IMG/VR virus record: IMGVR_UViG_3300043447_000028
Coordinates: 1 to 17,156 of that record
Strand: one strand, 5' to 3'
Origin: a virus
Taxonomy: Duplodnaviria > Heunggongvirae > Uroviricota > Caudoviricetes
DNA: 17,156 bases
In this document: piece by piece, positions 1-16,806 of the stretch
How the letters are laid out: the number at the start of each line of letters is the position of its first letter
How positions within the stretch are numbered: the first letter of the stretch is position 1
Program-made: the position numbers and the translations under genes
Notes under the pieces: model-generated
Databases searched by the model: none
What the model was told of the DNA's origin: nothing
What the model saw: only the letters and a program-made list of their open reading frames with translations

Positions 1-201
1 GCTTGCTTCGATATGATGTGGGTTATCATCGGATATATGAAATCACGTGGTTGGGATTGTGAAAATATCTGGGATGAGGGTGCAAAATCCAATTTATCCA
101 AGATTGACCCTGAAACTGGACTCGTTCTTCGTCGTGAAGACGGTAAAATCTTGAAACCAGAAGGCTGGAAACCACCAGATTTTACAAAATTCGTGAAATA
201 A
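1..201 (+). CDS. MazG-like/NTP-pyrophosphohydrolase family protein, C-terminal part (5' truncated by window edge)
   Basis: Frame is open from base 1 (ACFDMMWV...). The C-terminal 'RREDGKILKPEGWKPPD' is typical of phage all-alpha NTP-PPases. Confidence 0.7.
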   Translation, partial: ACFDMMWVIIGYMKSRGWDCENIWDEGAKSNLSKIDPETGLVLRREDGKILKPEGWKPPDFTKFVK

Positions 202-202
202 C

Positions 203-231
203 TTGTCTTTTTTGTGAAATTGAAGTAAAAT
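203..231 (+). promoter_or_regulatory. sigma70-type promoter (TTGTCT-17-TAAAAT); probable leaderless start at 238
   Basis: -35 at 203-208, 17-nt spacer, -10 at 226-231. The ATG lies 6 nt downstream and there is no SD. Confidence 0.6.
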
Positions 232-237
232 AACATT

Positions 238-741
238 ATGATTACACTTTATCTTGATATGGACGGTGTCCTTGCCGATTTTCACAAGGAATATGACAAA
301 TTTGACCCTGAACGTGAGGATCGTAAGAAGTTTCGATCCGCTGTTTTGGACCATCGCATCTTTGAGAAGCTGGATTTTATGCCAGACACACAAGAATTGC
401 TCAATCACGTGTCTAAATTGCAAGGCATCAACATTGAAATTCTTACATCAATGGGTACTCATGACCCATTTCAGGGTAATGAGGCTAAACACCAAAAACT
501 GAAATGGCTCAACGCTAAAAATATCCCTTACAAGGCAAATTTCGTTCGTAATAAAGAAGAAAAGGCACAGTACGCTACCCCAACTTCTATTCTTATTGAC
601 GATAGCATCGGTTGCATCACTCCATTTGATGCTGCTGGTGGTCACGGTATCCATCACCTGACTGCCAAAGAAACTATCAATAAATTGAATTCTGTTTTGA
701 AACAGATTCTCACATTACAATTAATGAATAAGCACGCATGA
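238..741 (+). CDS. HAD-superfamily 5'(3')-deoxyribonucleotidase (NT5C-like)
   Basis: Motif I 'LYLDMDGVLADF', 'ILTS' and motif IV 'ILIDD'. Confidence 0.85.
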   Translation: MITLYLDMDGVLADFHKEYDKFDPEREDRKKFRSAVLDHRIFEKLDFMPDTQELLNHVSKLQGINIEILTSMGTHDPFQGNEAKHQKLKWLNAKNIPYKANFVRNKEEKAQYATPTSILIDDSIGCITPFDAAGGHGIHHLTAKETINKLNSVLKQILTLQLMNKHA

Positions 742-1025
742 ACGATATTTTGATAAACACTTTTGGATGGATCAAGGATGATTATAAAAGCCACCCTGTT
801 CGATTTATTGTTGAGTTGCTTGCTTGGGCTATTAGCATTGGTTGCAGTGTCACAATGGCGACAACAGTCCCCAATCCTCCTCTACTTGTTCTATATCCTA
901 TCTGGATTAGTGGCTGTGCTCTTTATGCTTGGGCTGCTTATAGTAGGAAATCTTTTGGGATGTTGGCTAACTACATCTTGTTAACAACTATTGATACTGT
1001 CGGATTGTTGAGAATGGTATTATGA
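738..1025 (+). CDS. Small membrane protein, about 3 hydrophobic segments
   Basis: 95 aa, ATGA overlap with the upstream stop, hydrophobic stretches. Confidence 0.7.
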   Translation: MNDILINTFGWIKDDYKSHPVRFIVELLAWAISIGCSVTMATTVPNPPLLVLYPIWISGCALYAWAAYSRKSFGMLANYILLTTIDTVGLLRMVL

Positions 1026-1309
1026 TAACCTTAAATACTAAACAAATTTACATAACGCAACAACAACCGCAAACTCCACCAGCAATGCCTGTGCAGTTTG
1101 TTAAACCTTTATCATATCAATTTCGTGTTGCAGAACATTTAGACGATAATAATAATGTTGAACGTGTTGGGTTGCAAGTTGAAGTCTATGAACACGATGA
1201 ATATGGTTCGCCTACTATACGCACACCATGGGTAGATGTTCCACGTGTTAAACTGAAAAATGGTGTTATCTGGGTTGCACCAATGCCAGATCTCGGCACA
1301 ACCCCTTGA
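1022..1309 (+). CDS. Hypothetical protein
   Basis: 95 aa, ATGA-coupled to the upstream gene; Q/P-rich N-terminus. Confidence 0.6.
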   Translation: MITLNTKQIYITQQQPQTPPAMPVQFVKPLSYQFRVAEHLDDNNNVERVGLQVEVYEHDEYGSPTIRTPWVDVPRVKLKNGVIWVAPMPDLGTTP

Positions 1310-1334
1310 CTTTTATGCGAAGTTGTAGTATAAT
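1306..1334 (+). promoter_or_regulatory. sigma70-type promoter (TTGACT-17-TATAAT); probable leaderless start at 1341
   Basis: Near-consensus hexamers with a 17-nt spacer. The ATG lies 6 nt after the -10 and there is no SD. Confidence 0.8.
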
Positions 1335-1340
1335 TATATT

Positions 1341-1883
1341 ATGAACATCTTTTATCTACACAATGACCCTCGCATCTGCGCTCAACATCACGTTGATAAG
1401 CACTGCGTAAAAATGATTCTCGAATATGCTCAACTATTGTCTACTGCTCACCGTGTCCTTGATGGCACTGAGTCTATTGGTATGTCTGAATCTGGACGAA
1501 AGAAAAAGACCTGGACTTTACCAGACAGTCGCAACACTGTACTTTATTCTGCTACTCACATCAATCACCCTAGTGCTATTTGGGTCAGACAGTCCAAAGC
1601 AAACTACATCTGGCTCTGGAATCTATTTGAATGTCTGTGCACCGAGTACAGTTACCGTTACGGTAGAACCCACGCAACCGAAAGACTAGTGCAAGTTCTT
1701 TCTACTCCACCTAAGAACATCGGCTTTGGTCCATTCACTGAACCAACACCAGCTATGCCAGATGATTATAAAGTTGCTGGTGACTCTATTCAATCTTACA
1801 AAAATTACTATCTCGGTGACAAGAAACGAATGTTCTCTTGGAAAAACCGCCCTGCCCCATCATGGACTACGAATGCTAACTGA
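1341..1883 (+). CDS. Pyrimidine-dimer DNA glycosylase/endonuclease V-like protein
   Basis: N-terminal 'MNIFYLH.DP..CAQ.H.DKH.VKMILE.AQLLSTAH' and 'HINHPSAIW' match this widespread phage family. Confidence 0.7.
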   Translation: MNIFYLHNDPRICAQHHVDKHCVKMILEYAQLLSTAHRVLDGTESIGMSESGRKKKTWTLPDSRNTVLYSATHINHPSAIWVRQSKANYIWLWNLFECLCTEYSYRYGRTHATERLVQVLSTPPKNIGFGPFTEPTPAMPDDYKVAGDSIQSYKNYYLGDKKRMFSWKNRPAPSWTTNAN

Positions 1884-2436
1884 TTTTCTTGTAATTCCAA
1901 ATTTTTTCAAAGATCCGAAATCTGTATACGAATTAGCAATTAAGCAGACATATCATACGTATAAAGATGAAATTGATTTTGTTGAAGGTAACAGATCATT
2001 TCCAGGTCGTCGCACTTCTCCATTAGGTGAAGAGTTTAAGTCTTTGACTGATGAGTTTCTTATAGGTACATTAGTCAATGTTCGACAAGACGCTGATGTT
2101 GGAATTTCATATGGAGGGTTTCCATTGTTCCATTCACTATTCGATGGTGATGGTGGTGTTGGGAATTCTGGTCTTCATAGAGATAGTTCTGCTTGGGCTG
2201 CTATCGTTTATCTTAATGAAAATATTCTTAAAGACCCAAAAGAGTGTGGAACAATTCTTTATCGCAACGGAGAACGAATTGAAGTTCCTTATGTTTATAA
2301 CACTATGATTCTTTATCGTGGAGACTATCTGCATGGAGCAGCCAGTGGATTCGGTAGTACGATCGAAACATCTAGATTGTCTATGAATTTCTTTATCTCT
2401 GACATCAATATTTTTGTTAAAAGTCAATCTCTATAA
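1873..2436 (+). CDS. 2OG-Fe(II) oxygenase superfamily protein
   Basis: HxD 'GLHRDSS', distal His 'YLHGA' and 'RLSMNFF'. Start set at ATG 1873 (MLTDFLVIPNFF), which overlaps the upstream stop, instead of 1726. Confidence 0.8.
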   Translation: MLTDFLVIPNFFKDPKSVYELAIKQTYHTYKDEIDFVEGNRSFPGRRTSPLGEEFKSLTDEFLIGTLVNVRQDADVGISYGGFPLFHSLFDGDGGVGNSGLHRDSSAWAAIVYLNENILKDPKECGTILYRNGERIEVPYVYNTMILYRGDYLHGAASGFGSTIETSRLSMNFFISDINIFVKSQSL

Positions 2437-2438
2437 AG

Positions 2439-2445
2439 CTAAATA
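2439..2445 (+). promoter_or_regulatory. Possible T4-type late promoter (CTAAATA)
   Basis: TAAATA core in the short intergenic gap ahead of an AAGGAG RBS; the same heptamer occurs at 7236. Confidence 0.4.
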
Positions 2446-2462
2446 CAAGTAAGGAGAACATT

Positions 2463-2711
2463 ATGCCAACTTATGTATTTCGCAATAAAGAAACAGGCGA
2501 ACAATTTGAACAGATTATGCGTATGTCTGAACTTGATCCGTTCAGAGAAGCTAATCCACATTTGGAAACTGTTATCCAAGCAGTAGCGTTTGGTGATCCA
2601 ACCAAACTATCATCAACACGGAAATTCGATACTGGATTCAAGGAGGTGCTGCAACGAATCCATGAGAAAACACCTGGAAGTCAATTAGATAAATCATCAT
2701 CCCAGTTATAA
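2463..2711 (+). CDS. FmdB zinc-ribbon-like small protein (cysteines absent)
   Basis: 'MPTY.F.N..TGE.FE' resembles the FmdB-type N-terminus; AAGGAG RBS. Confidence 0.6.
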   Translation: MPTYVFRNKETGEQFEQIMRMSELDPFREANPHLETVIQAVAFGDPTKLSSTRKFDTGFKEVLQRIHEKTPGSQLDKSSSQL

Positions 2712-2719
2712 GGAAACAA

Positions 2720-3490
2720 ATGGCAACTCGTGCAGCAGCAAAGACAAGACCAATAGATAATGTGCAAGGTGAGCCTAAGACAAAAACAGTAAATAACCAT
2801 CTAAAATTAAGGATTGATGACTTAAAGACGTTTGAACCATTGACAGATAATCAGAAACTATTTTTTGATTCATACAAACGTGGTGATTATTTCGTGGCAC
2901 TTCATGGTGTCGCAGGGACAGGAAAAACCTTCTGTGCGCTTTACAAAGCGATTGAAGAAGTATTAGACAAATCAAATCCATTTGACAAGATTATCGTAGT
3001 TCGTTCTGCGGTGCAATCTCGTGAAATTGGACATCTTCCAGGCGATGTGAATGAGAAGATGGAAATTTATGAACAACCATATCGTCAGATATGCGAAACC
3101 TTGTTTGGTCGCAAAGACGCATGGGATAGATTAGAAGAACAAGGACATATCAGTTTTATTTCTACATCATTTATTCGTGGTATGTCATTTGATGATGCTA
3201 TCATCATTGTTGATGAAATGCAAAACTTGACTTATGAAGAGATTGATACCGTTATGACTCGTGTCGGTTATCGCTCTAAGATTATGTGGTGTGGTGACTA
3301 TCGCCAGACAGACTTGAATAAACGTAAAAGTGATGTTACAGGAATTCTCAAATTCTTTGACATCGCACAACACATGAGTGCTTTTACTCGTATCGAGTTT
3401 ACTGTTGACGACATCGTTCGATCTTCCTTAGTGAAGGACTATATTTTGGCTAAACTTAAATATGAGGACTACTATGAGAAGAAACAATGA
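2720..3490 (+). CDS. phoH: PhoH family ATPase
   Basis: Walker A 'GVAGTGKT', 'GHLPGD..EK', 'RGMSFDDAIIIVDEMQN', 'TRVG' and 'GDYRQTDL'. Confidence 0.95.
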   Translation: MATRAAAKTRPIDNVQGEPKTKTVNNHLKLRIDDLKTFEPLTDNQKLFFDSYKRGDYFVALHGVAGTGKTFCALYKAIEEVLDKSNPFDKIIVVRSAVQSREIGHLPGDVNEKMEIYEQPYRQICETLFGRKDAWDRLEEQGHISFISTSFIRGMSFDDAIIIVDEMQNLTYEEIDTVMTRVGYRSKIMWCGDYRQTDLNKRKSDVTGILKFFDIAQHMSAFTRIEFTVDDIVRSSLVKDYILAKLKYEDYYEKKQ

Positions 3491-4107
3491 TAACTGCAGA
3501 ACAATTCAAGCATTTATTCCCTCGTGCTCAAGATCCAGAATCTTGGGCAGCTTCGATGAACGAAGTATTTCCAACATATGACATCAATACACCAGAACGT
3601 GTTGCTGCTTTCTTAGCGCAATGTGGGCATGAGTCTGGTGGTTGGACTGTTTTTGAAGAGAACCTAAACTATTCTGCACAAGGATTGAATAGCATCTTCA
3701 GAAAGTATTTCCCTACAATCGAAGAAGCCACACCATATGCTCGCAAACCAGAAATGATTGCGAACAAAATCTATGCTAACCGCATGGGTAATGGTGGTCC
3801 AGAATCAGGAGACGGGTATCGTTTCCGTGGACGTGGTCCAATTCAGTTGACTGGTCGTGCGAACTATACGGCATTTGCCAAAGAGATGTTCGAAGACTGG
3901 GAGAACGTAGTAAACAACCCTGACTGGGTTACAGCGGATCGTGACTTTGCTTTGATGTCAGCTATTTGGTTCTGGAACAAGAACAAATTGAATGTTCAAG
4001 CAGACAGCGGTGACATCAAATTAATGACTAAGAAAATCAATGGTGGTTATATTGGTCTAGAAGATCGCATTAAACACTATAATGAGGCTATGCACTTACT
4101 TACATAA
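3487..4107 (+). CDS. Glycoside hydrolase family 19 endolysin
   Basis: 'AAFLAQCGHESGG', 'ENLNYSA', 'YRFRGRGPIQLTGRANY', 'SAIWFW' and 'TKKINGG'. Confidence 0.92.
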   Translation: MITAEQFKHLFPRAQDPESWAASMNEVFPTYDINTPERVAAFLAQCGHESGGWTVFEENLNYSAQGLNSIFRKYFPTIEEATPYARKPEMIANKIYANRMGNGGPESGDGYRFRGRGPIQLTGRANYTAFAKEMFEDWENVVNNPDWVTADRDFALMSAIWFWNKNKLNVQADSGDIKLMTKKINGGYIGLEDRIKHYNEAMHLLT

Positions 4108-4760
4108 TGAAAACATTTATACATCATGACTTTGCGAAACTTGTGCGTGACACAAGACCCGATGGACAAAGAACTTATCTAACCCCATCGGGTTTTTCGT
4201 ATCCAAGTGTGACAACAATTACTGGGCAAGCAACAGCAGAAGGTATTGCTAAGTGGCGTCAACGTGTCGGTGCAGAAGAAGCTAATAGAGTTTCTGCTAA
4301 AGCATCAGCACGTGGTACTCGGATTCACCAGTACTGTGAAGATTATCTGCGTGGAAACGTGTTCGAAGCTGATATGTTTGACTTGGAGATGTTCAATTCT
4401 ATCAAGTTTTTACTAGACGATATTGATAATATACATTGTCTTGAAACACCACTCTACTCTGACCACTTACAGGTTGCTGGAACAGTTGATTGTATCGCTG
4501 AATTTCAAGGTAAGCTAACTGTCATTGATTTTAAGACAGCAAGTAAACCAAAAGATCGAGAAGACATTTATCACTACTTTATGCAGTGCGCAGCTTATGC
4601 TGTTGCGTTTGAAGAACGCACTGGTATCCCTATTGGTCGTCTCGCTATTTTGATGGCAGTAGAGAATGATGATCCACGATGGTTTATAGAGAAGCGTGAT
4701 AACTGGATTGGTCCATTCCGTAAACTGAGATTAGATTATAAGAATAGAAAGGGTATTTAA
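4107..4760 (+). CDS. PD-(D/E)xK exonuclease (Cas4/RecB-like fold, common in T4-like phages)
   Basis: 'YPSVTTI', 'RGTRIH', 'AGTVDCIAE', 'IDFKTASKPK' and 'YFMQCAAYA'. Confidence 0.9.
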   Translation: MKTFIHHDFAKLVRDTRPDGQRTYLTPSGFSYPSVTTITGQATAEGIAKWRQRVGAEEANRVSAKASARGTRIHQYCEDYLRGNVFEADMFDLEMFNSIKFLLDDIDNIHCLETPLYSDHLQVAGTVDCIAEFQGKLTVIDFKTASKPKDREDIYHYFMQCAAYAVAFEERTGIPIGRLAILMAVENDDPRWFIEKRDNWIGPFRKLRLDYKNRKGI

Positions 4761-5305
4761 TGGATAGAACTATTGATAAAAACGGGAATGAGATTTTCCT
4801 AGAGAATTGGGAAGATATCAAATTTATACCGAAGGTTCTAACTAAACAGCAATGTGATGATCTAATTAAAGACGCTGATTTCGAGAACACTCCAAATAAT
4901 ATACCTAATTATGAACCAGATACTCTTATAGAAAGAAGAAAAATTGTACATCACGAATTAGTTAAATTACTGAGTGATAGATATTCATGGGATGTCACCC
5001 ATAGCCCTATTTTGTGGTATAAACCTGGTGTTTCCAATGAACCACATGCTGATAGTTTTGCTTATCTCGGTAGAGATGAGAACCAAGATAATATCGTTGA
5101 AAGAATTATGCCTTGGAAAAGAACTGCAGTTATATTTTTGAATGATGATTTTGATGCTGGTGAATTAGTTTTCCCTAAGTTTGGGGTAACTATAAAACCA
5201 AAAACTGGTAACATGGTGCTATCTTCTGGTGGGTATGAATTTTTACATTATACAGAAGCAGCTTCTAAAGATAGATATGTGTTAGTTGTTAGAATCAATA
5301 ATTGA
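4760..5305 (+). CDS. 2OG-Fe(II) oxygenase (prolyl-4-hydroxylase-like)
   Basis: 'PHADS', 'AVIFLNDDFDAGELVFP', distal His 'LHYT' and 'RYVLV'. Confidence 0.85.
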   Translation: MDRTIDKNGNEIFLENWEDIKFIPKVLTKQQCDDLIKDADFENTPNNIPNYEPDTLIERRKIVHHELVKLLSDRYSWDVTHSPILWYKPGVSNEPHADSFAYLGRDENQDNIVERIMPWKRTAVIFLNDDFDAGELVFPKFGVTIKPKTGNMVLSSGGYEFLHYTEAASKDRYVLVVRINN

Positions 5306-5330
5306 CACGCAACCTTTCATAATGTATAAT
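5302..5330 (+). promoter_or_regulatory. Consensus sigma70 promoter of the tmRNA gene (TTGACA-17-TATAAT)
   Basis: Exact consensus hexamers at 5302-5307 and 5325-5330; predicted TSS about 5337. Confidence 0.9.
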
Positions 5331-5336
5331 AGTGAT

Positions 5337-5650
5337 ATTGCTGTATGAAGCAAAGAGAAAAGTGTTCTGGACGGGAGTTCGATTCTCCCCACCTCCACCA
5401 AAAACATATTGAGCAAGACGTCGTACTCTTGTTAAGATTTGATGTTGTTAGCGCAGTTAAATTATTCAGTATGTTTTTGATGGGGGTGACTAGGTTTCGA
5501 CAGGGCAACAAGTAAACAAGTGGACAGCACGGTAGGCGATGACCGTAAATCAAGCAAACTAAGTAAATGCAAACGACTCTGTCTACGCATTAGCAGCCTA
5601 AACGCTGCTTAGGGTTTCGGTAGGTTTCCTCGTAACAGAATAACCTACCA
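5337..5650 (+). ncRNA. ssrA: Circularly permuted (two-piece) tmRNA: acceptor piece ~5337-5400, intervening segment 5401-5481, coding piece 5482-~5650; tag (A)ANDSVYALAA at 5569-5601
   Basis: T-arm GGGAG-TTCGATT-CTCCC and CACCTCC-A-CCA end come before GGGGGTG-ACTAGGTTTCGAC. The acceptor stem is 7 bp with G3:U70. H2 pairings CAGGGCA/TGTTCTG and ACAGC/GCTGT, a pk1-like ACGGT/ACCGT stem and a GCAGC/GCTGC hairpin at the tag end are present. Confidence 0.93.
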
Positions 5651-5659
5651 TCTTTATTA

Positions 5660-5688
5660 TGCCAGCCACATACTGTGCCAGCCATATA
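5660..5688 (+). repeat. 13-bp direct repeat TGCCAGCCA(C/T)ATA x2, 16-bp period
   Basis: Copies at 5660-5672 and 5676-5688; the second runs into TATAAT (5685-5690). Confidence 0.7.
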
Positions 5689-5721
5689 ATTTTAACTTAA
5701 TTAAAATTTTAGGAAAATAAA

Positions 5722-6288
5722 ATGAAATTGAAAATGTTAGTAGCTGCATTATTGGTAGCTGGTTCTTCTATCGCAAGCGCACAGTCTTCTATGACTGTAG
5801 GATATGCCGTACAAGACGACGTTAGCCCAGCCGTGCAAAAGCACGTTAATTCTTTGCGAGTTCAAACACGATTGTTCGGCAAAGTTGATGGTGACATTGG
5901 TATTTCTGCGACTACTGCAGACGTAGCAAACACTATCTCTAATCGTTATGAAGCAGGTTTGACATATAGCCAACCACTTAACTCTGTATTTACAGCATCT
6001 ATTCGTGGTGGGTTGGGTACCAAACAATCGTCTGGTAAACCAGATTATCCATACCATTCAGTAGAACCAGCAGTTTCTGTTAAGTTGCCGATTGATGGAT
6101 TATCAGCTAAAGTTGGTTATCGTTTCCGTAGTGGATTTGATTCTGTCGCAAAAGATACCAACGAAGCAACTCGTTTGCAACTGGCATATGCATTAACTAA
6201 GCAAGATCGAATTGCTGTTGGTTATGATATCCAACGTGGTGATGGTGCGAACAAAACTATCGCATTGAACTATACACGAGGTTTCTAA
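5722..6288 (+). CDS. Outer-membrane beta-barrel protein with signal peptide
   Basis: Sec signal (MKLK-hydrophobic-ASA), alternating beta-strand pattern, C-terminal 'LNYTRGF' BamA-type signature; AGGA RBS. Confidence 0.75.
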   Translation: MKLKMLVAALLVAGSSIASAQSSMTVGYAVQDDVSPAVQKHVNSLRVQTRLFGKVDGDIGISATTADVANTISNRYEAGLTYSQPLNSVFTASIRGGLGTKQSSGKPDYPYHSVEPAVSVKLPIDGLSAKVGYRFRSGFDSVAKDTNEATRLQLAYALTKQDRIAVGYDIQRGDGANKTIALNYTRGF

Positions 6289-6551
6289 TGAATGTTATTC
6301 CATTGAAGGATAGAGTTCTCGTTGCAGAGAACAAGCGTGAGAACACTACAGAATCTGGTATTGTCTTGCAAGGTGCAGGTTTCGATCAATCGAAAACAGG
6401 TACTGTTCTAGCCATTGGTCCAGATGTTACTGATGTTAAAGTTGGTGATGTGATTTATCTGGAATGGAATAAGGCAGCAGTTGTCAAGATTGGTGACGCA
6501 CAACGTGTGATGATCAAGCAAGAAAACATCGTTGCTGTATTAGAACAATGA
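6288..6551 (+). CDS. groES: GroES/Cpn10 co-chaperonin
   Basis: 'IPLKDRVLV', mobile loop 'TTESGIVL', 'GTVLAIGPD' and 'VKVGDVI'. Confidence 0.92.
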   Translation: MNVIPLKDRVLVAENKRENTTESGIVLQGAGFDQSKTGTVLAIGPDVTDVKVGDVIYLEWNKAAVVKIGDAQRVMIKQENIVAVLEQ

Positions 6552-7054
6552 ACATTGCTGTCCTCTGCAATGGTCCAAGCAGAGTAGTCTTTCGAGACTC
6601 TCTGGCTTATGACTATGTTATCGGTTGTAACATACCTTGGACTGTTGTAGATGCGACAGTAATTCTCGACCCAGAAGTCATCCACTACATGGGTAAGAAT
6701 CCTGAACTTATCAAGACTCCAGCTTATTTCTCTCGAAAGGCTTGGATGATTACAGATGAGATCAAAAAGAGAAAACTTTTTGAACCTTATCTGATTGAAC
6801 TCATTGACCCTAAATATCCTTATCACTCTGCTGGTCACGTAGCTGTAGAAGCTATGATTCGTAAGGGTGCGACTGGGATCGATATTTTTGGTTGTGATTC
6901 TTGGTTTGAATCTACGTTAGAAAGTCACACTCATCAGTTTGTTGATACATCAGATGAGACTAAGCGATGCATCGAAGCGTGGCGTACTAGATGGAATTCT
7001 ATCATCGAGAACAATCCCGAAGTAAAAATTAACTTCATCAAAGGAAATATATGA
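6548..7054 (+). CDS. Hypothetical protein with MptE/DUF115/sialyltransferase-like motifs
   Basis: 'IAVLCNGPS' at the N-terminus and 'SAGHVAVEAMIRKGATGIDIFGCD' resemble this Rossmann-like group; function uncertain. Confidence 0.5.
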   Translation: MNIAVLCNGPSRVVFRDSLAYDYVIGCNIPWTVVDATVILDPEVIHYMGKNPELIKTPAYFSRKAWMITDEIKKRKLFEPYLIELIDPKYPYHSAGHVAVEAMIRKGATGIDIFGCDSWFESTLESHTHQFVDTSDETKRCIEAWRTRWNSIIENNPEVKINFIKGNI

Positions 7055-7230
7055 AACACTTGTTAGTATTGATCGCTTTAGCATTCACTTCTGCTACATT
7101 CGCAGCTGATGCTCCAGCAGCTAAGAAAGACGAAACTAATTGTGTGACACGTGATAAGAAGGGTAACTGCCCTCCACCACCAAAGTCACCAAAGCCAACT
7201 CCAAAGAAGAAGGCTGAAGAGAAGAAATAA
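7051..7230 (+). CDS. Unlisted 59-aa secreted peptide MKHLLVLIALAFTSATFA|ADAPAAKKDETNCVTRDKKGNCPPPPKSPKPTPKKKAEEKK
   Basis: AAAGGA RBS, ATGA overlap with the upstream stop, signal-peptide pattern, TAA at 7228-7230; fills the gap left in the ORF track. Confidence 0.85.
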   Translation: MKHLLVLIALAFTSATFAADAPAAKKDETNCVTRDKKGNCPPPPKSPKPTPKKKAEEKK

Positions 7231-7235
7231 TCTTC

Positions 7236-7242
7236 CTAAATA
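7236..7242 (+). promoter_or_regulatory. Possible T4-type late promoter (CTAAATA, overlapping TATAAT)
   Basis: TAAATA core just after the upstream stop; no -35 at the expected spacing. Confidence 0.45.
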
Positions 7243-7247
7243 TAATA

Positions 7248-7280
7248 CCAGCCTGACAGTGCTGGACACACAAACTGTCA
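7248..7280 (+). promoter_or_regulatory. H-type RNA pseudoknot in the leader of the 92-aa gene
   Basis: S1 CCAGC(7248-52)/GCTGG(7261-65), L1 1 nt, S2 TGACAGT(7254-60)/ACTGTCA(7274-80), L3 ACACACAA; all 12 pairs are Watson-Crick. Confidence 0.7.
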
Positions 7281-7308
7281 ACTTTACACACAACACAGGA
7301 GAAGTAAA

Positions 7309-7587
7309 ATGTCTAATATGACACCGTTCGAGATTCGCCTTGAACTACTAAAAATGGCGAAAGATATGCTTGTTGAAGAATACTACGGTAAGAAAGAACA
7401 AGTATCACAAGATTGGCACGTTAAGGTAGAAAGTGCCAGACATAATGGATCTCCACCACCAGAGCATCCAGCAATGCCAATATATCCAACTGAAGCTGAT
7501 GTTGTCGCAAAGGCAACACAACTAAACGGCTTCGTGTCTCAAATCCCCAACACTACACAAGAAAAGACTAGCAAAAAGTCCACCTGA
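7309..7587 (+). CDS. Hypothetical phage protein (MTPFEIRLELLKMAKDML type)
   Basis: AGGAG RBS, 92 aa, bounded by its own putative promoter and terminator. Confidence 0.8.
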   Translation: MSNMTPFEIRLELLKMAKDMLVEEYYGKKEQVSQDWHVKVESARHNGSPPPEHPAMPIYPTEADVVAKATQLNGFVSQIPNTTQEKTSKKST

Positions 7588-7597
7588 TAAGGGATCG

Positions 7598-7628
7598 GTC
7601 AGAGGGTTCACACACCTTCTGACTTTTT
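7598..7628 (+). terminator. Rho-independent terminator
   Basis: GTCAGAGGGT-TCACAC-ACCTTCTGAC (10 bp, one G:U) followed by TTTTT. Confidence 0.75.
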
Positions 7629-7647
7629 AACCATAAAGGAGATAACT

Positions 7648-8208
7648 ATGCGTTTATACCGTATATACATTCCGCTTATATTATTGTTTATAAGTTTGGT
7701 TGTCTTAACAAAAACAACTTATACAGAGACTCTCAATCTTAGCGTTAAGATCTCTCAGCTGACAAAAGAGTCTCAACAACAAGTTCACTGTTTGGCAGAG
7801 AACATCTATCACGAAGCAGGTTTTGAACCAGTCGATGGTAAAGTTGCTGTGGCATTGGTTACGATGAATCGTCTTCAAGACCCTCGTTATCCAAAAGATA
7901 TTTGCTCTGTAGTGAAACAAAGAGTAAAATCAACTTGTCAGTTCTCTTGGTTCTGTGAACATGGTAAGTCAATCAAGAATCAGACAGTTTATGAAGATGC
8001 ATTAGAAGTTGCACTTCGAGTTTTCGCTAACTACGAAACTACACCAGACATCACCAAAGGTGCTCTGTTCTATCATGCCGATTATGTTAACCCTCGTTGG
8101 CGTGGTTTAGAAAAAACTACCGTAATTGGTAGACACATATTTTATAAAGAAAGCGAACGATACTATGATGCAAAAAATGAATCTCCAACTAAAGGAAGAA
8201 AGCTCTAG
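7648..8208 (+). CDS. SleB/Hydrolase_2 cell-wall hydrolase with N-terminal hydrophobic anchor or signal
   Basis: 'CLAENIYHEA', 'GKVAVALVTMNR', 'ICSVVKQ', 'CQFSW', 'ALFYHADYVNPRW' and 'IGRHIFY'. Confidence 0.9.
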   Translation: MRLYRIYIPLILLFISLVVLTKTTYTETLNLSVKISQLTKESQQQVHCLAENIYHEAGFEPVDGKVAVALVTMNRLQDPRYPKDICSVVKQRVKSTCQFSWFCEHGKSIKNQTVYEDALEVALRVFANYETTPDITKGALFYHADYVNPRWRGLEKTTVIGRHIFYKESERYYDAKNESPTKGRKL

Positions 8209-8722
8209 ACATGCATTCTACCTAATGATGGAAGAAATTTCACTCAGTACAGTTAAAGGTGCAGTTGAGTGGATTTTTGAAGCTAACTTTAGTGAAGAAC
8301 CACCAGAGTTGCTAAACTTGATTATTACATCTCCAGGTGGTGATTTGAACGCAGCATTTGCGTTGATTGATGTTATGCGTGGTTCATCTATTCCTGTGCG
8401 AACAATCGGTCTTGGACAGATTGCTTCTGCTGGTCTGATGATTTTCATTGCTGGTGATAAAGGTATGCGAATTCTTACTCCGAACACATCAATCCTAAGT
8501 CATCAATACTCGTGGGGTGCGTTTGGTAAAGAACATGAACTTTTTGCCACAGTAAAAGAATTCGATTTAACAACAAAGAAGATGACTCAACACTACAAAA
8601 AGTGTACTGGTCTCTCTGAAAAACAAATTCGTGATGTGCTCTTGCCACCACAGGATATTTGGCTGAGTCCATCCGAAGCTAAGAAGCTAGGAATCTGCGA
8701 CGATGTTAAAGAACTTTCTTAA
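8165..8722 (+). CDS. clpP: ClpP-family serine protease
   Basis: 'ITSPGGD', catalytic Ser in 'IASAG', His in 'LSHQ', Asp in 'QDIWLSPSEAKKLGICD'. The start is uncertain; ATG 8165 is preferred. Confidence 0.9.
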   Translation: MMQKMNLQLKEESSRHAFYLMMEEISLSTVKGAVEWIFEANFSEEPPELLNLIITSPGGDLNAAFALIDVMRGSSIPVRTIGLGQIASAGLMIFIAGDKGMRILTPNTSILSHQYSWGAFGKEHELFATVKEFDLTTKKMTQHYKKCTGLSEKQIRDVLLPPQDIWLSPSEAKKLGICDDVKELS

Positions 8723-8732
8723 GGAAATCACT

Positions 8733-8945
8733 ATGAACGAAAATGTTTGGACACTTTCACTATTGACTGCCGTATTGGCTATTGTTGGTGCTGTTGGTTT
8801 TTACAACTACACTTCGATGAAGTCTATGGAGCGTAACATTGAATCCGCTATTGCAAAGGGTATCGACCCTGTAGCAGTGCGATGTGCTTACGGTAACTCC
8901 CACGACAACATCTGTATCGCTTACGCTGTAACAGTCAAAAAGTAA
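8733..8945 (+). CDS. Small membrane-anchored hypothetical protein
   Basis: AAGGAA RBS before ATG 8733, one N-terminal TM segment, C-terminal Cys pair. Confidence 0.75.
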   Translation: MNENVWTLSLLTAVLAIVGAVGFYNYTSMKSMERNIESAIAKGIDPVAVRCAYGNSHDNICIAYAVTVKK

Positions 8946-8964
8946 TACTTTCGTTTCTAAACCT

Positions 8965-8993
8965 ATACCCCTCAGTTTTTGAGGGGTATTTTT
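8965..8993 (+). terminator. Rho-independent terminator
   Basis: ATACCCCTCA-GTTTT-TGAGGGGTAT perfect 10-bp stem followed by a T-run. Confidence 0.85.
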
Positions 8994-9001
8994 CCTTGTA
9001 G

Positions 9002-9014
9002 AATCAACAAGTTA
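9002..9014 (+). promoter_or_regulatory. IHF consensus site AATCAA-CAAG-TTA
   Basis: Exact match to WATCAANNNNTTR, with an upstream T-tract, about 20 bp before a -35. Confidence 0.55.
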
Positions 9015-9033
9015 CGGAGCCTCCAGAAAGTTG

Positions 9034-9062
9034 TTGCCTTAAATGCCGAAATGCGCAATAAT
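9034..9062 (+). promoter_or_regulatory. sigma70-type early promoter (TTGCCT-17-AATAAT)
   Basis: 17-nt spacer; lies in an intergenic region after a terminator and before an AAAGGA RBS. Confidence 0.65.
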
Positions 9063-9092
9063 TACTACAGTTGATTAGGAAAAGGATCTGAA

Positions 9093-9788
9093 ATGTCTCT
9101 ACTTACTGTTGGTAACCCAAAGTTGGCTAAAGGTGAAAAGAAGGGTTATTTGTCTTCTGTTCTCCACTTTGCTCCAGCCGATATTTCTGGTAAAGAAGTT
9201 TGCCCTAAGCGCACAGCTGGTTGTACAGCTGCTTGTTTGAACACTGCTGGTCGTGGTGGTATCTTCAAGAAGGGTGAGACCACTAATGTGATCCAACAAG
9301 CACGTATCCGCAAAACAAAATACTTCTTCGAGAATCGTCGTGACTTCTTGAACGAATTGACTGTCGAGATTGTCAAAACAATCGCTAAGGCTGAGAAGCT
9401 GGGTTTGATCCCTGTGTTTCGTTTGAACGGCACTTCTGACTTAGCATGGGAAAAGTACGAAGTTGCTGCTGGTAAGAACATTTTCCAGATGTTTCCTAAT
9501 GTGCAGTTCTATGACTACACTAAAGTTAACAATCGTAAAGTTGCACACATCCCTAACTACCACCTGACTTTCTCCAAAGCAGATGGCAACGACATGGATG
9601 TTCGTTTGGCTCTGTCCAATGGTATGAACGTGGCTGCAGTATTCCACGAAGTGCCAGAATCTTATCTTGGTCGTAAAGTTATCAATGGCGATGAAACAGA
9701 CTTGCGTTTCCTCGACCCAAAGGGTGTTATCGTTGGCTTGAAGGCTAAGGGTAAAGCTAAAAAAGACACTTCTGGTTTTGTTGTTTAA
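9093..9788 (+). CDS. Conserved phage protein with Cys cluster (GP88-like/radical-SAM-like fold, tentative)
   Basis: 'CPKRTAGCTAACL', 'FRLNGTSD', 'FYDYTK' and 'LRFLD...GLKAKG'. Confidence 0.55.
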   Translation: MSLLTVGNPKLAKGEKKGYLSSVLHFAPADISGKEVCPKRTAGCTAACLNTAGRGGIFKKGETTNVIQQARIRKTKYFFENRRDFLNELTVEIVKTIAKAEKLGLIPVFRLNGTSDLAWEKYEVAAGKNIFQMFPNVQFYDYTKVNNRKVAHIPNYHLTFSKADGNDMDVRLALSNGMNVAAVFHEVPESYLGRKVINGDETDLRFLDPKGVIVGLKAKGKAKKDTSGFVV

Positions 9789-9799
9789 GGAGATATATT

Positions 9800-10264
9800 A
9801 TGGGTTTAGATATGTACTTGTCGGCTAAGAAATATTTGTCTAAGTATTTTGACGCTGAAGATACTGGTAAGATTAATGCTATCAACGATATCTTTGGTAT
9901 CGTGGGTGAAGAAGATGGTGACTATGGTGCTCAGGAAGTGACTTTCCGCATCGCCTACTGGCGCAAAGCCAATGCAATCCATCAGTGGTTTGTTGATAAT
10001 TGTCAGGACGGCATTGATGAGTGTCAAGAAACCTTTCTGCCTCGTGAGAAACTTCAGGAACTGATGGAACTCTGCGAAACGATTATCGCTGATCCAAAGA
10101 AAGCAAGAGAGAATTTGCCAACTACTTCTGGTTTCTTCTTCGGTTCAACTGAGTACGATGATTACTATTTACAAGATGTTCAGTATACAGCTGATCGTCT
10201 GAAGAAGATTCTCAATGATGAGGCTCTTAATAAATGTCATTTTTATTATCAGTCGAGCTGGTGA
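9800..10264 (+). CDS. Conserved hypothetical phage protein (MGLDMYL...YWRKANAIHQWF type)
   Basis: AAGGAG RBS; recognisable recurring phage motif, function unknown. Confidence 0.8.
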   Translation: MGLDMYLSAKKYLSKYFDAEDTGKINAINDIFGIVGEEDGDYGAQEVTFRIAYWRKANAIHQWFVDNCQDGIDECQETFLPREKLQELMELCETIIADPKKARENLPTTSGFFFGSTEYDDYYLQDVQYTADRLKKILNDEALNKCHFYYQSSW

Positions 10265-10821
10265 TGTTTCCTGTGAATATCAATGTCCCTTATGTGGAAA
10301 ATCTTGAGCAGCGTGGCTACGCCGATATGATCGAAAAGCTAGTTGCTGAAGAAGCCAAGAAGAATAGTCCATCTGAGTTTTATCAAGCTAGAAGTAAGCG
10401 CAGCATAGAGGATTTTTCTTATCATACATATTCAAAGTATGTTTGGTTTGATGTCAAGTCTTTTGATTCAGACTCTGACTTCTCTATGCCTAACTTAGTG
10501 TCTATTGATAGACTCCGTAAAGTTGTGACTAGCACGATGGAAGAGTTGATTTATATTTTCGTTGAGTATAAACTAGACCACACTAATCGTAAGGTTGACA
10601 TCAAGAAAATTGAATTTCGTCCAGTTTACTCGATCAATCCATCAGTGCTGGCTATTCAGAATCTTGGTAAGGGTGTGTTGCAGATTAAGAACATGCACAA
10701 TAGCGTAGACTTATACAATGGAACAAAACAAGAGTGGATGAAAGAAATTTCATCTATGGCTAGAGACTTTTACGCTAAACAAATAATCAAATTCACAAAA
10801 TTGCAGAGTACTTGGAAATGA
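10264..10821 (+). CDS. Hypothetical protein, possible PD-(D/E)xK restriction-endonuclease-like nuclease
   Basis: Start moved to ATG 10264 (TGATG overlap); 'SIED...WFDVKS' has D...D-x-K spacing. Confidence 0.4.
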   Translation: MFPVNINVPYVENLEQRGYADMIEKLVAEEAKKNSPSEFYQARSKRSIEDFSYHTYSKYVWFDVKSFDSDSDFSMPNLVSIDRLRKVVTSTMEELIYIFVEYKLDHTNRKVDIKKIEFRPVYSINPSVLAIQNLGKGVLQIKNMHNSVDLYNGTKQEWMKEISSMARDFYAKQIIKFTKLQSTWK

Positions 10822-11162
10822 TTTATCACACCACCCCACCGAAGTCTAAGAAACGCAAACCTAACGCTAAACAGCGTGAGTTGGATAAGTCTTGGGCTGA
10901 TCTTCTTAAGAAGTATGAACCAAAGAAGCCTCTAGCAGTTGCTAAGGATGCTGGTCTGTCATACTCACTTGGTGCGCCAGCTGGTCGGGAGACCCCTAGG
11001 ATACCGAGTCGTACAACCACTGGTGGTAATGCCACATGGCGTCCGAATCCTGTTTACACAGGCACTAAGATCAAAGGTATTGGTACGATGCATAAGTCTA
11101 ACGCTGTGCCAGTGTTTAGTGATGAAGAAGCACAAGACATTGCAAAAATGAGGAGAGGCTAA
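10818..11162 (+). CDS. Basic hypothetical phage protein
   Basis: ATGA overlap at 10818; Lys-rich N-terminus; C-terminal 'YTG..IKGIGTMHKSNAVPV'. Confidence 0.75.
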   Translation: MIYHTTPPKSKKRKPNAKQRELDKSWADLLKKYEPKKPLAVAKDAGLSYSLGAPAGRETPRIPSRTTTGGNATWRPNPVYTGTKIKGIGTMHKSNAVPVFSDEEAQDIAKMRRG

Positions 11163-11407
11163 TGGAACCGAAAAAACTTCTGAAGATTCGTCTGCGTGAA
11201 GATGGCACTTGGGAACATGTGTATGATGAAAATGTGTTCTATGAGTTGGATCCATTCTTAATGGCTGAACTTCACAAAAAGAAACCAAAGATGAGTCGTC
11301 GTGAACGAATCCAAAAGAGCGCAGAAGATTACATTGAAGAAGCACTGGAACTCTCTGATTACGAAGAGTCTAAGATCGTTCTCTCCCACATTATGAATCT
11401 GAAATAA
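11162..11407 (+). CDS. Hypothetical protein
   Basis: 81 aa; TAATG coupling to the upstream gene. Confidence 0.7.
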   Translation: MEPKKLLKIRLREDGTWEHVYDENVFYELDPFLMAELHKKKPKMSRRERIQKSAEDYIEEALELSDYEESKIVLSHIMNLK

Positions 11408-11410
11408 ACC

Positions 11411-11439
11411 TTGCCTTGCAACCAAAACTGGAGTATAAT
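11411..11439 (+). promoter_or_regulatory. sigma70-type promoter (TTGCCT-17-TATAAT); probable leaderless start at 11446
   Basis: 17-nt spacer; an in-frame ATG lies 6 nt after the -10. Confidence 0.75.
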
Positions 11440-11445
11440 ATGAAT

Positions 11446-11664
11446 ATGGACTTGATTACTAAATACAATAACCTGATTGCAGAACGCATGAAGATGGACA
11501 AATTCTTTACAATGTTTTTGGACAAGTATGAACGCAAGATGGATCCAGAACGCACAGATACGCCTATCTGGAAACTCTACAAACAAAAGCATAAAGAATA
11601 TGGACAACTTTGTCAAGAAATTAGAAACACTAACTACTACATACAACGACAAGCCAATGTTTAA
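11446..11664 (+). CDS. Hypothetical helical protein
   Basis: 72 aa from ATG 11446; earlier starts fall inside the promoter. Confidence 0.7.
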   Translation: MDLITKYNNLIAERMKMDKFFTMFLDKYERKMDPERTDTPIWKLYKQKHKEYGQLCQEIRNTNYYIQRQANV

Positions 11665-11872
11665 GACTGCGAACGAATTCTCACTGCATATCGAATCTAT
11701 CGTGAAGGATAAGCGTCTTAGTTATATGGACGCTGTCCTTGATTACTGTAAAGAAAACTATCTCGAACCTGCCGATGTTGCATCACTTATCAACAAGTCA
11801 TTGAAGGATAAGATTGAGATGGATTTTCGTGAATTGAATTATCTACCAAAACAGGCTAAGCTAGATGTCTAA
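11657..11872 (+). CDS. gp33: T4 gp33-like late transcription coactivator
   Basis: 'FSLHIESIV....SYMDAVLDYC......DVASLINKSLKDKIE....LNYL'; position before gp59; start reset to ATG 11657. Confidence 0.88.
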   Translation: MFKTANEFSLHIESIVKDKRLSYMDAVLDYCKENYLEPADVASLINKSLKDKIEMDFRELNYLPKQAKLDV

Positions 11873-12050
11873 ACTTATATTCTTTATACCATCTATTGTG
11901 TTGATTGCAATGATGGTGTTAGTTATAACATTGGCAAGACACGCAGACGAAAGAACGATTAGAATCGACTGTACCATTGCAGAGATATCACCCGATATCC
12001 CAGTGGAAGCCAAAGAACTTTGTAGGAAACATCGAAGTGGACGGATTTAA
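11865..12050 (+). CDS. Small membrane protein with Cys pair
   Basis: N-terminal TM helix; 'IDC..AEISPDIP...KELCR'. Confidence 0.65.
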   Translation: MSKLIFFIPSIVLIAMMVLVITLARHADERTIRIDCTIAEISPDIPVEAKELCRKHRSGRI

Positions 12051-12648
12051 GGCATATCGTTATTACCTAGCGATCAAATTACACTTCACGACTGAGAAAT
12101 TTAATGTCTTCGAAAATAGAGGAAATGTTAAAGGGACACGTGAAGCATTTAATGCTAGGAATGACAGATACATTTTTGAGAAACTTGCCACAAAGTTTGA
12201 GGCAGACAAAGACATTATTCAGTTCTTTGTAGCAAACTTTGCATATGGTAATGGTAATGCAATCTATGAAGGTAAGGAAGCCATCGATAACCTCACTGAG
12301 TGGAATAGACGCAAACAATCTATCACTCAAGTGTTTGTTAACGATCTCGCTAAACTATTGACATATGTAGAAGTCAATAAGTTACCGACCAGCGCAATCT
12401 TTAACTTTACTGATGATGAGTACCCAGTTGCGTTGAAATTATTCATCGGTGGTCAAATAAGTATTGAGACACTTAGAATTATCGATGATCGAACTCCAAT
12501 TATTGATCAGTGGTCTTTGAATACTGCTGTTCAGAATATATGGAGTAACGAATTGTTGAGAGTTAAAAAGTTGACAGGATTTGTGAAATACGATAAGATT
12601 AAACTGAAAATGATTTTTACACACTTCATGGAAGAAATTGCAGAGTAA
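12037..12648 (+). CDS. gp59: T4 gp59-like helicase loader
   Basis: 'GFKAYRYYLAIKLHFT', 'RNDRYIFEKLA', 'FFVANF' and 'ISIETL'; GTG start at 12037 with AGGA RBS; lies between gp33 and gp32. Confidence 0.88.
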   Translation: MDGFKAYRYYLAIKLHFTTEKFNVFENRGNVKGTREAFNARNDRYIFEKLATKFEADKDIIQFFVANFAYGNGNAIYEGKEAIDNLTEWNRRKQSITQVFVNDLAKLLTYVEVNKLPTSAIFNFTDDEYPVALKLFIGGQISIETLRIIDDRTPIIDQWSLNTAVQNIWSNELLRVKKLTGFVKYDKIKLKMIFTHFMEEIAE

Positions 12649-12652
12649 TACG

Positions 12653-12868
12653 ATGGGCAAGACTTACAATCAATCGAAGCGATTCGATGACGAATTTGGT
12701 GGGCGTTCAGGGAAACCTGCCAAACATAGCAACGGTAAAAAAACTGGTGGTATGAGAACGCTAAATAGTTATGTTGAAGAAGATTATGACATCAACGCCG
12801 ATGATTTCGACGATGAGTTTGAACTTGATGATGAAATTTCAATACAACATAATACTAATACAAAGTAA
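12653..12868 (+). CDS. Small protein with basic N-terminus and acidic C-terminus
   Basis: 'MGKTYNQSKRF...DDFDDEFELDDE'; sits between gp59 and gp32. Confidence 0.65.
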   Translation: MGKTYNQSKRFDDEFGGRSGKPAKHSNGKKTGGMRTLNSYVEEDYDINADDFDDEFELDDEISIQHNTNTK

Positions 12869-12886
12869 ATACTAAGGAAAATACTA
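12841..12886 (+). repeat. Five AATAC(A/T)A units in the gp32 leader
   Basis: Copies at 12841, 12851, 12857, 12868 and 12880, around the AAGGA RBS. Confidence 0.65.
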
Positions 12887-12888
12887 AA

Positions 12889-13800
12889 ATGGATATTCAA
12901 AAACTACGTGCTATGCGCAACTCTGATTTCGGTGCAATCTCTAACGCATTCGAAAAAGTAGCAAACCCTCAAACTGAAACCAAGTCATACAACGACGATC
13001 GCTTCTGGCGTCTCGAAGGTGACAAAGCTGGCAATGGTACTGCCACTTTGCGTTTCCTCCCACGTGTTGAAGGCGATGAACTCCCATGGGTTCGTATCTT
13101 CTCTCATGGTTTCCAAGGTCCAACTGGTAAATGGTACATCGAAAATTCTCTGACCACTCTTGGTGAGAATGACCCTGTCGGTGAACTCAACACGCAGCTA
13201 TGGAACTCTGGTTCTGAAGCCAACAAAGAAATTGCACGTAAGCAAAAGCGTAAGCTGAGTTTCACTGCTAACGTCTTGGTTGTGTCTGATCCAAAACACC
13301 CAGAGAACGAAGGCAAGGTATTCTTGTTCAAGTTCGGTAAGAAAATCTTCGACAAGATTATGGACAAAGCACGTCCTACATTCGAGGATGAGAAGCCAGT
13401 GAACGTGTTTGATTTGTGGGAAGGTGCTAACTTCAAGCTGCGCATGCGTAAGAAGGATGGATATGCAAACTATGACGAATCTGCGTTCATGGAGCCTTCA
13501 GCCGTTTCTGACGACGAAGACACTCTGTTGAAGATTGTTAATAGCCAGCACAAGCTGTCTGAATTCACTGATCGTAAGAACTTCAAGTCTTATGATGAGT
13601 TGAAGAAGAAGCTGAATGAAGTTTTGTCTGGTGATTCTTTTGCACCTAAGAGTGCAGCTGAAATTGCTGACGAACCACGTTCTGCGCCAGCACCTGCTTT
13701 CACTGCGAAAGCTGCACCACAACCTAAGTCTGTTGCCTCTAACCAAGACGACGATGAAGATGTGATGTCTTATTTCCAGAAGATTGCCAACGACGAGTAA
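12889..13800 (+). CDS. gp32: T4 gp32-like single-stranded DNA-binding protein
   Basis: 'DDRFW....DKAGNG.A..RFLP', 'HGFQGPTGKWYIENSLTTLG..DPV', 'PENEGKVFLFKFGKKIFDKI' and an acidic tail. Confidence 0.97.
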   Translation: MDIQKLRAMRNSDFGAISNAFEKVANPQTETKSYNDDRFWRLEGDKAGNGTATLRFLPRVEGDELPWVRIFSHGFQGPTGKWYIENSLTTLGENDPVGELNTQLWNSGSEANKEIARKQKRKLSFTANVLVVSDPKHPENEGKVFLFKFGKKIFDKIMDKARPTFEDEKPVNVFDLWEGANFKLRMRKKDGYANYDESAFMEPSAVSDDEDTLLKIVNSQHKLSEFTDRKNFKSYDELKKKLNEVLSGDSFAPKSAAEIADEPRSAPAPAFTAKAAPQPKSVASNQDDDEDVMSYFQKIANDE

Positions 13801-13819
13801 TCACTTCTGAGAAATGATT

Positions 13820-13845
13820 AAAGGGAGCCTTGCGCTCCCTTTTTT
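13820..13845. terminator. Bidirectional Rho-independent terminator between convergent blocks
   Basis: AAA-GGGAGC-CTTGC-GCTCCC-TTTTTT. Confidence 0.85.
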
Positions 13846-13846
13846 A

Positions 13847-15475: not shown

Positions 15476-15477
15476 CT

Positions 15478-15621
15478 TTATCTCTTCTTAGATTCTAATC
15501 GTTGTTTTTCTTCTTCTAGATACTGAATTAACATGTGCACATAAATTTCACGTTCAAACGGAATCATTGTTTCCAACTCTTCCAAAGAATACTTGTGGTA
15601 CTGCATCAGAGCGAAGTTCAT
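15478..15621 (-). CDS. gp51: gp51-like baseplate hub assembly protein (short ORF; possibly the C-terminal part of a frameshift fusion)
   Basis: 'NFALMQYHKYSLEELETMIPFEREIYV.ML.QYLEEE'. The first ATG is at 15621, but the frame stays open upstream through the end of gp26. Confidence 0.8.
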   Translation of the reverse strand: MNFALMQYHKYSLEELETMIPFEREIYVHMLIQYLEEEKQRLESKKR

Positions 15622-15659
15622 TTTATAGTAATTTACTAAACTCTCATGACACAGGTTTA

Positions 15660-16382: not shown

Positions 16383-16384
16383 AA

Positions 16385-16801: not shown

Positions 16802-16806
16802 ATTGT

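Follow-up and report, generated by a model that had tools for sequence, protein, structure and literature searches.

A circularly permuted two-piece tmRNA gene, assigned to the beta type, in uncultivated T4-like phages

A stretch of phage DNA that appears to encode a tmRNA raises the question of whether the gene is genuine, complete and the phage's own, and of what a phage could gain from carrying it. tmRNA is the RNA that rescues stalled ribosomes, and ALAA is its canonical degron. The sequence at issue occupies positions 5337 to 5650 of the window, by which is meant the whole stretch of 17,156 nucleotides analysed here, and an earlier note had read it as a phage-encoded, circularly permuted and minimal tmRNA in two pieces. 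The comparisons described below show the gene itself, the family to which it belongs, its conserved structure and the fixed place that it keeps in a phage lineage.

Both tools that the earlier note had suggested, ARAGORN and the Rfam covariance models, recover a permuted two-piece tmRNA gene at this place. ARAGORN calls one at 5308-5692 with the tag ANDSVYALAA, the same tag as had been read by eye. Two Rfam models match over their full length and above their gathering thresholds: RF04321 (tmRNA_permuted; 139.6 bits, E 6.5e-28, gathering 47) with model positions 1-213 of 213 on window positions 5339-5601, and RF01850 (beta_tmRNA; 121.1 bits, E 6.5e-37, gathering 84) with model positions 1-331 on 5288-5656. 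The beta subtype fits best, RF01850 being the match retained among the overlapping subtype models of the clan, and all 331 of its positions are matched with the exception of the last hairpin, a terminal, G+C-rich one of 9 bp. Given these two scores and the fold of the tmRNA precursor (z = -3.6 against shuffled sequences), the signal is far beyond chance. In the minimum free energy (MFE) structure the T arm and acceptor stem are formed, as are P2a, the intervening hairpin, P5 and the hairpins of pk1 and pk2. The gene is accordingly classed, by its fit to these models, as a member of the betaproteobacterial two-piece (beta) tmRNA type. Its parts, all on the + strand, are as follows.

5302-5330, +: predicted sigma70-type promoter, with TTGACA (5302-5307), a 17-nt spacer, TATAAT (5325-5330) and a predicted start near 5337
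5337-5400, +: acceptor piece of about 64 nt, placed by the Rfam alignment, its 5' end inferred from the promoter
5339-5344 and 5363-5368, +: distal P2 strand and P2a strand of the acceptor piece, from the Rfam alignment
5373-5389, +: T arm of the acceptor piece, 5373-5377 pairing with 5385-5389 around the loop TTCGATT
5390-5400, +: acceptor 3' strand CACCTCC (5390-5396), discriminator A (5397) and encoded CCA (5398-5400), ending the acceptor piece
5401-5481, +: intervening segment of 81 nt, a hairpin in the MFE fold, predicted to be removed on maturation
5401-5413 with 5465-5477, +: closing stem of the intervening hairpin, whose interior is variable
5478-5481, +: 4-nt leader TGAT preceding G1
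5482-5488, +: acceptor 5' strand GGGGGTG, forming seven pairs with CACCTCC, among them G5484:T5394, the G3:U70 pair
5482-5650, +: coding piece of at least 169 nt (about 170), the RF01850 alignment reaching 5656; in order, acceptor 5' strand (5482-5488), P2a (5502-5507), distal P2 (5524-5529), pk1, tag, P5 and pk2
5529-5555, +: pk1, with P3 (5529-5533/5542-5546) and a tentative P4 between the loop 5536-5540 and 5549-5555
5569-5601, +: tag reading frame, with resume codon GCA (5569-5571), ANDSVYALAA, last codon GCC (5596-5598) and stop TAA (5599-5601)
5592-5597 with 5604-5609, +: helix P5, holding the tag stop codon in its loop and present in the MFE fold
5611-5649, +: pk2, an H-type pseudoknot with S1 (5611-5614/5627-5630), S2 (5619-5625/5643-5649) and the conserved loop CGTAACAGAATA

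Every position in the earlier reading was read again in the sequence and holds. The order is that of a permuted gene, the CCA end at 5400 lying upstream of G1 at 5482 and the 81-nt hairpin separating the two. The 7-bp acceptor stem and its G3:U70 alanine determinant can be read directly at 5390-5396/5482-5488, and the tag, from GCA at 5569 to the TAA ending at 5601, is identical by direct reading and in ARAGORN.

The structure can be judged against relatives. A single strict pattern describing the permuted architecture was run over IMG/VR, and at least 88 viral contigs proved to share it, several of them 160-170 kb long. For the structural comparison the two pieces of 69 unique relatives were aligned separately, and pairs were counted by custom scripts on MAFFT alignments. 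The tRNA-like domain has its 7-bp acceptor stem with G3:U70, its discriminator A, its CCA and a T-arm loop of the GTTCGAnTC type, and these features are invariant or compensatorily changed in the 69 relatives. Each pair of the T arm is formed in all 69, with compensatory changes present. Pairing between the pieces in the H2 region, which had been described as intact, is confirmed for both P2a (5502-5507/5368-5363; pairs in 65-69 of 69) and distal P2 (5339-5344/5529-5524; pairs in 45-66 of 69): these helices are formed in the window and covary among the relatives by GC/AU/CG exchanges. The middle helix that the Rfam model places between the pieces is absent from the window, none of its four pairs being formed. 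When the two pieces are folded together, the acceptor stem and P2a form between them, and the MFE fold exchanges distal P2 for a local hairpin (5338-5342/5349-5353). Covariation favours the inter-piece distal P2 over this hairpin as the probable pairing.

Upstream, the hexamers at 5302-5330 match the sigma70 consensus at 12 of 12 positions, as had been noted, and are the sole such match within 5100-5900; they would be expected to act as a promoter for the tmRNA gene. Of the 70 unique upstream sequences compared from relatives, 33 have TATAAT as their top-scoring -10 hexamer and 28 have the -10 hexamer 70-71 nt ahead of the CCA end. The intervening segment is also structured: a closing stem of at least nine contiguous pairs is found in 85% of 62 unique relatives, compared with 21% of chimeric controls, and its arms take 50 distinct sequences, a covariation that supports a hairpin maintained by selection on pairing. 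A coding role for this segment of the window was considered and rejected, since no ribosome-binding site was found within it and its sole ATG frame has just 12 codons. In three relatives the intervening segment has a Shine-Dalgarno sequence and a conserved hydrophobic frame of 22 codons (MKPYEIIVITLLTILIIVHVLF type); these frames differ synonymously from one another, and their TGA overlaps the leader ahead of G1.

In the coding piece, the tag frame begins at an alanine resume codon without a start codon and ends in a hydrophobic degron. On its 5' side lies pk1, and 48 relatives of a single length class show at least 10 versions of its P3 stem. The second stem, P4, is tentative, because it would comprise merely 2-3 pairs and shows, by eye, three or four covarying states (GC/GC, AC/GT, AG/CT and ATG/CAT). 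Five of the six pairs of P5 are formed in 54-69 of the 69 relatives and the innermost in 21, so that the helix is retained in most of them, with little two-sided change. The pseudoknot pk2 is better marked by substitution: its S2 pairs in 60-64 of the 69 relatives with many two-sided, compensatory changes, and its S1 in 55-69. It is the counterpart of the GGG...CCUUGUUAC hairpin of the bacterial beta model.

These findings bear on the description of the RNA as minimal. The piece sizes given for it, about 64 and about 170 nt, are correct; they are normal for the beta-type family and not unusually small, the acceptor piece being equal in length to that of the bacterial beta model. The surmise that there is little room for pk2 to pk4 stands for pk3 and pk4, which are absent, some 70 nt remaining between pk2 and the next gene, but not for pk2, which is present and supported by covariation. 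The coding piece thus holds pk1, the P4 of which is tentative, and a full H-type pk2, the typical set of two-piece tmRNAs (PMC3985003), and the piece sizes match the bacterial model, so that the term minimal does not distinguish this gene and is better dropped. A search from 5650 to the next gene found no intrinsic terminator. A direct repeat, TGCCAGCCA, occurs twice at 5657-5688 (TATGCCAGCCACATACTGTGCCAGCCATATAAT) and ends in TATAAT about 35 nt ahead of the start of the next gene at 5722; the same motif lies 3' of the tmRNA in two relatives, and it may be a phage-specific promoter or operator.

The window comprises bases 1-17156 of an IMG/VR virus record of 81,156 bases, which CheckV estimates to be 49% complete. 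From its start to 13.8 kb it carries tightly packed genes on the strand of the tmRNA, and its G+C content is even (36-45%). Around the tmRNA the gene order is PhoH, GH19 lysin, PD-(D/E)XK nuclease, tmRNA, a 188-aa signal-peptide protein, GroES, a cell-wall hydrolase, a ClpP-like protein, GP88, gp59 and gp32; T4 baseplate and small-terminase genes come next, on the opposite strand. With T4-like phage genes on both sides and a virus record as its source, the tmRNA is rightly called phage-encoded. The gp32 protein is 51-52% identical to those of HTVC008M and Melnitz, its closest matches in a search of the GenBank phage collection, and the carrier appears from its genes to be an uncultivated T4-like myophage. 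Phage tmRNAs are commonly assumed to rely on the SmpB of the host. Neither a match to the SmpB family (PF01668) nor any tRNA gene was found in the 81-kb record, about half a genome, and because SmpB is missing from it the phage tmRNA, to judge from this half, must depend on host partners. The lack of an SmpB there concerns the autonomy of the system, not what kind of RNA the gene encodes.

One neighbour deserves separate mention.

8126-8722, +: ClpP-like gene, 2.4 kb downstream of the tmRNA (PF00574, 100 bits)

The product is closest to cellular ClpP in NCBIfam and PDB comparisons, and motifs in the alignment coincide with the catalytic Ser/His/Asp positions of ClpP. Its frame begins at a TTG and overlaps the preceding gene by 83 nt, the ClpP match covers residues 56-195 only, and the NCBIfam score is 85.7 against a curated cut-off of 249. 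As its scores lie far under the NCBIfam curated cut-offs, it is best taken as a putative divergent ClpP with an uncertain true start.

The locus recurs well beyond this one record. ARAGORN finds a permuted tmRNA with an intact tag in 85 of 89 loci examined, 84 of these in related contigs. The tags take 25 different forms, almost all of the plan AND..[FY]ALAA and most commonly ANDAQFALAA; the middle residues are highly variable, with AND and ALAA constant. Two relatives are also of beta type. The PD-(D/E)XK nuclease lies upstream in 45 of the 63 loci with sufficient flank and PhoH in 32 of 42; downstream, the cell-wall hydrolase is found in 42 of 46 loci and a ClpP-like homologue, within 4.5 kb, in 34 of 46 informative ones. 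All four are on the strand of the tmRNA, whose position is fixed between the nuclease on one side and orf92, the cell-wall hydrolase and ClpP on the other. Since synteny and architecture recur in related contigs, the tmRNA gene is a constant component of a large, uncultured lineage of T4-like phages. The block corresponding to window positions 2720-9788 is conserved across dozens of contigs and reads PhoH, GH19 lysin, PD-(D/E)XK nuclease, tmRNA, a variable slot, orf92, cell-wall hydrolase, ClpP-like protein and GP88. The variable slot can hold the 188-aa signal-peptide protein, GroES or orf168, and in 13 loci GroES lies immediately 3' of the tmRNA.

In the INPHARED phage collection, a DNA search found nothing like the window gene beyond its tRNA-like part, to which the best matches, two Xanthomonas phages, were confined (11-21% of the query). 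Xanthomonas phage Rb1 (PQ569993.1, 16300-16605), a cultured phage with a 91-kb genome, has a permuted tmRNA that is absent from its GenBank annotation; the tag is ANDDNFRPALRLAA, RF04321 scores 103 bits, no subtype model passes its threshold, and a tRNA adjoins the gene.

The beta-type two-piece lineage is reportedly associated with Sharkady and Williams in 2004. What is said of it here rests on Rfam, PMC11915505 and PMC3985003. A looser pattern gave a bacterial set of 111 stretches, mainly from Azonexus/Dechloromonas, Thauera, Azoarcus, Accumulibacter, Propionivibrio and Rhodocyclus, with a few from Herbaspirillum. The genes of the first-named groups and that of the window share the gene order, the acceptor stem, the T arm and P2; a putative pk1 with a loop of AGGCGAU type, P5 around the stop codon and a pk2 with a CCUYGUAAC loop; the tag plan ANDxxFA[LIV]AA; and an intervening hairpin with a promoter directly upstream of the gene. 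In the window the resume codon lies 87 nt from G1; the median for this distance is 85 in the phage and bacterial sets alike. The differences concern the carrier, a phage and not a bacterium; the terminal G+C-rich hairpin, which is present in the bacterial beta model and absent from the window gene; and the intervening hairpin, which measures 81 nt in the window and 57-85 nt in its phage relatives but 24-50 nt in the bacterial genes recovered, these ranges being set by the search patterns. In the Rhodocyclales type it has a stem of 9-11 bp and a small loop. A pattern with the bacterial spacer length found only 9 viral contigs, however, whereas the pattern with the longer spacer gave 88.

In a maximum-likelihood tree of 162 sequences, unrooted and sampled through these pattern sets, 86 bacterial rows of the Rhodocyclales type form one clade (support 97), and the gene of the window is one of 64 phage sequences that group separately, with weak support (SH-aLRT 74). 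All 71 phage rows lie outside the bacterial clade. Because the main phage group stands apart from the Rhodocyclales clade in this way, it is conceivable that the beta-type permuted gene could have passed from phages to bacteria and not the reverse. Five Herbaspirillum genomes have beta-type permuted tmRNAs on a very long branch, with AYGT or AFGT in place of ALAA at the end of the tag (ANEPQFVAYGT and similar).

Taken together, the window probably carries a functional beta-type ssrA gene of a T4-like phage. From the sequence we infer a course for its transcription, processing, charging, tagging and benefit. The host RNA polymerase would transcribe the gene early from the sigma70 promoter into a single precursor composed of the acceptor piece, the intervening hairpin and the coding piece. 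Host tRNA-processing enzymes would excise the hairpin, with RNase P cleaving before G5482 and endo- and exonucleases trimming the acceptor piece to the encoded CCA at 5400, and the two resulting RNAs would be held together by the 7-bp acceptor stem and helix P2. Through G3:U70 the RNA could be charged by the host alanyl-tRNA synthetase, and host SmpB and EF-Tu would then bring it to ribosomes stalled on broken mRNAs, where translation would restart at GCA 5569 and append ANDSVYALAA. The ALAA end would direct the tagged product to proteases of the ClpXP type. For the phage, the benefit would probably lie in extra ribosome rescue and amino-acid recycling during infection, as the transcription and mRNAs of the host are shut down, and the ClpP-like protein of the phage may participate.

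If that participation were specific, the tmRNA and the ClpP-like gene would together make up a tag-and-degrade pathway run by the phage, with SmpB, alanyl-tRNA synthetase and the ClpX unfoldase borrowed from the host, and such a pathway could convert the products of stalled host translation to amino acids while infection proceeds. The catalytic-site motifs of the ClpP-like protein and its closeness to cellular ClpP lend this extension plausibility, but it is unlikely, because linkage to ClpP within a single lineage amounts to inherited synteny and not to independent evidence. The phage RNA might instead be a competitor that captures host SmpB and stalled ribosomes, so blunting a response that depends on trans-translation or altering the fate of tagged proteins. 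No phage SmpB was found in the 81-kb record, so that of the host would have to be shared; the middle of the tag varies greatly among relatives in which AND and ALAA are fixed; and a tag-less tmRNA of mycobacteriophage DS6A has been reported to inhibit the host tmRNA (PMC11915505). However, the tag frame is complete, with a canonical ALAA degron in nearly all relatives, and pk1, P5 and pk2 show the conservation seen in functional bacterial tmRNAs, with no sign of a defect. With the tag and all helices intact, interference with the host system is not favoured and appears distinctly unlikely.

Two further explanations would deny the gene a role in the phage altogether. tmRNA genes are common integration sites and fragments of them occur in prophages (PMC9004378), which lends some plausibility to a chance pick-up of a host gene or to the remnant of an ssrA integration site. 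The gene of the window, however, is complete and has its own promoter; compensatory changes run through at least 69 distinct sequences at one position in a genome of lytic T4-like type; and the main phage group lies outside the sampled bacterial clade, which argues against a recent pick-up. A passenger is therefore very improbable. That the contig itself is bacterial or chimeric, and its tmRNA that of a bacterium, is barely credible: the RNA type is indeed known from Rhodocyclales and their relatives, but T4-like genes flank it on the same strand, base composition is even, and the same neighbours are found in dozens of independent viral contigs of up to 170 kb. Conservation, covariation and synteny are thus taken to exclude both a passenger or attachment-site remnant and contamination, and a working ssrA gene belonging to the phage is the reading retained.

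Whether such a phage gene had already been catalogued was a question that the earlier note had left aside. The kind is in print, and standard tools at default thresholds detect the window gene. Buchholz et al. (2022) described the two-piece tmRNA of phage Melnitz and found tmRNA in 402 of 18,146 phage genomes; of 133 unique phage forms 53 were in two pieces, all but three of them (50) from marine or aquatic phages (PMC9004378). Entries in their Table S1 include HTVC008M, the phiCbK-like Caulobacter phages, cyanophages S-CRM01 and S-SSM7 and Bordetella phage PHB04 (PMC9004378), and the tmRNA database from which RF04321 derives holds 79 phage sequences (PMC11915505). Because phage two-piece tmRNAs are documented in this way (PMC9004378), the gene of the window is a clean further example of them and no new class of element. 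The other catalogued cases are likewise ssrA genes carried by phages, mostly aquatic ones, and in many the gene is permuted.

The closest comparison is with HTVC008M and Melnitz, whose permuted tmRNA genes were reconfirmed, RF04321 matching both. Like the phage of the window, both are aquatic myophages of T4-like type and fall within the same broad group, and each has one permuted gene with an early-type promoter before it and no reported SmpB. Their tmRNAs are of the alpha type (RF01849, 83.8 and 106.7 bits), whereas that of the window is of beta type. In Melnitz a glutamine riboswitch lies directly 3' of the tmRNA, which itself is upstream of the late-transcription coactivator (PMC9004378), whereas the window gene has no riboswitch and stands between the nuclease and the block of outer-membrane protein, GroES and ClpP. 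Relatives of the pelagiphage/Melnitz group thus carry another tmRNA subtype at another genome position, and this combination suggests that aquatic myophages have acquired ssrA repeatedly. To the documented phage two-piece tmRNAs the present locus adds a well-supported case of beta type and an uncultured T4-like lineage of at least 88 contigs, and the conserved neighbourhood of GroES and ClpP-like genes offers a concrete hypothesis, open to test, for the presence of ssrA in phages.
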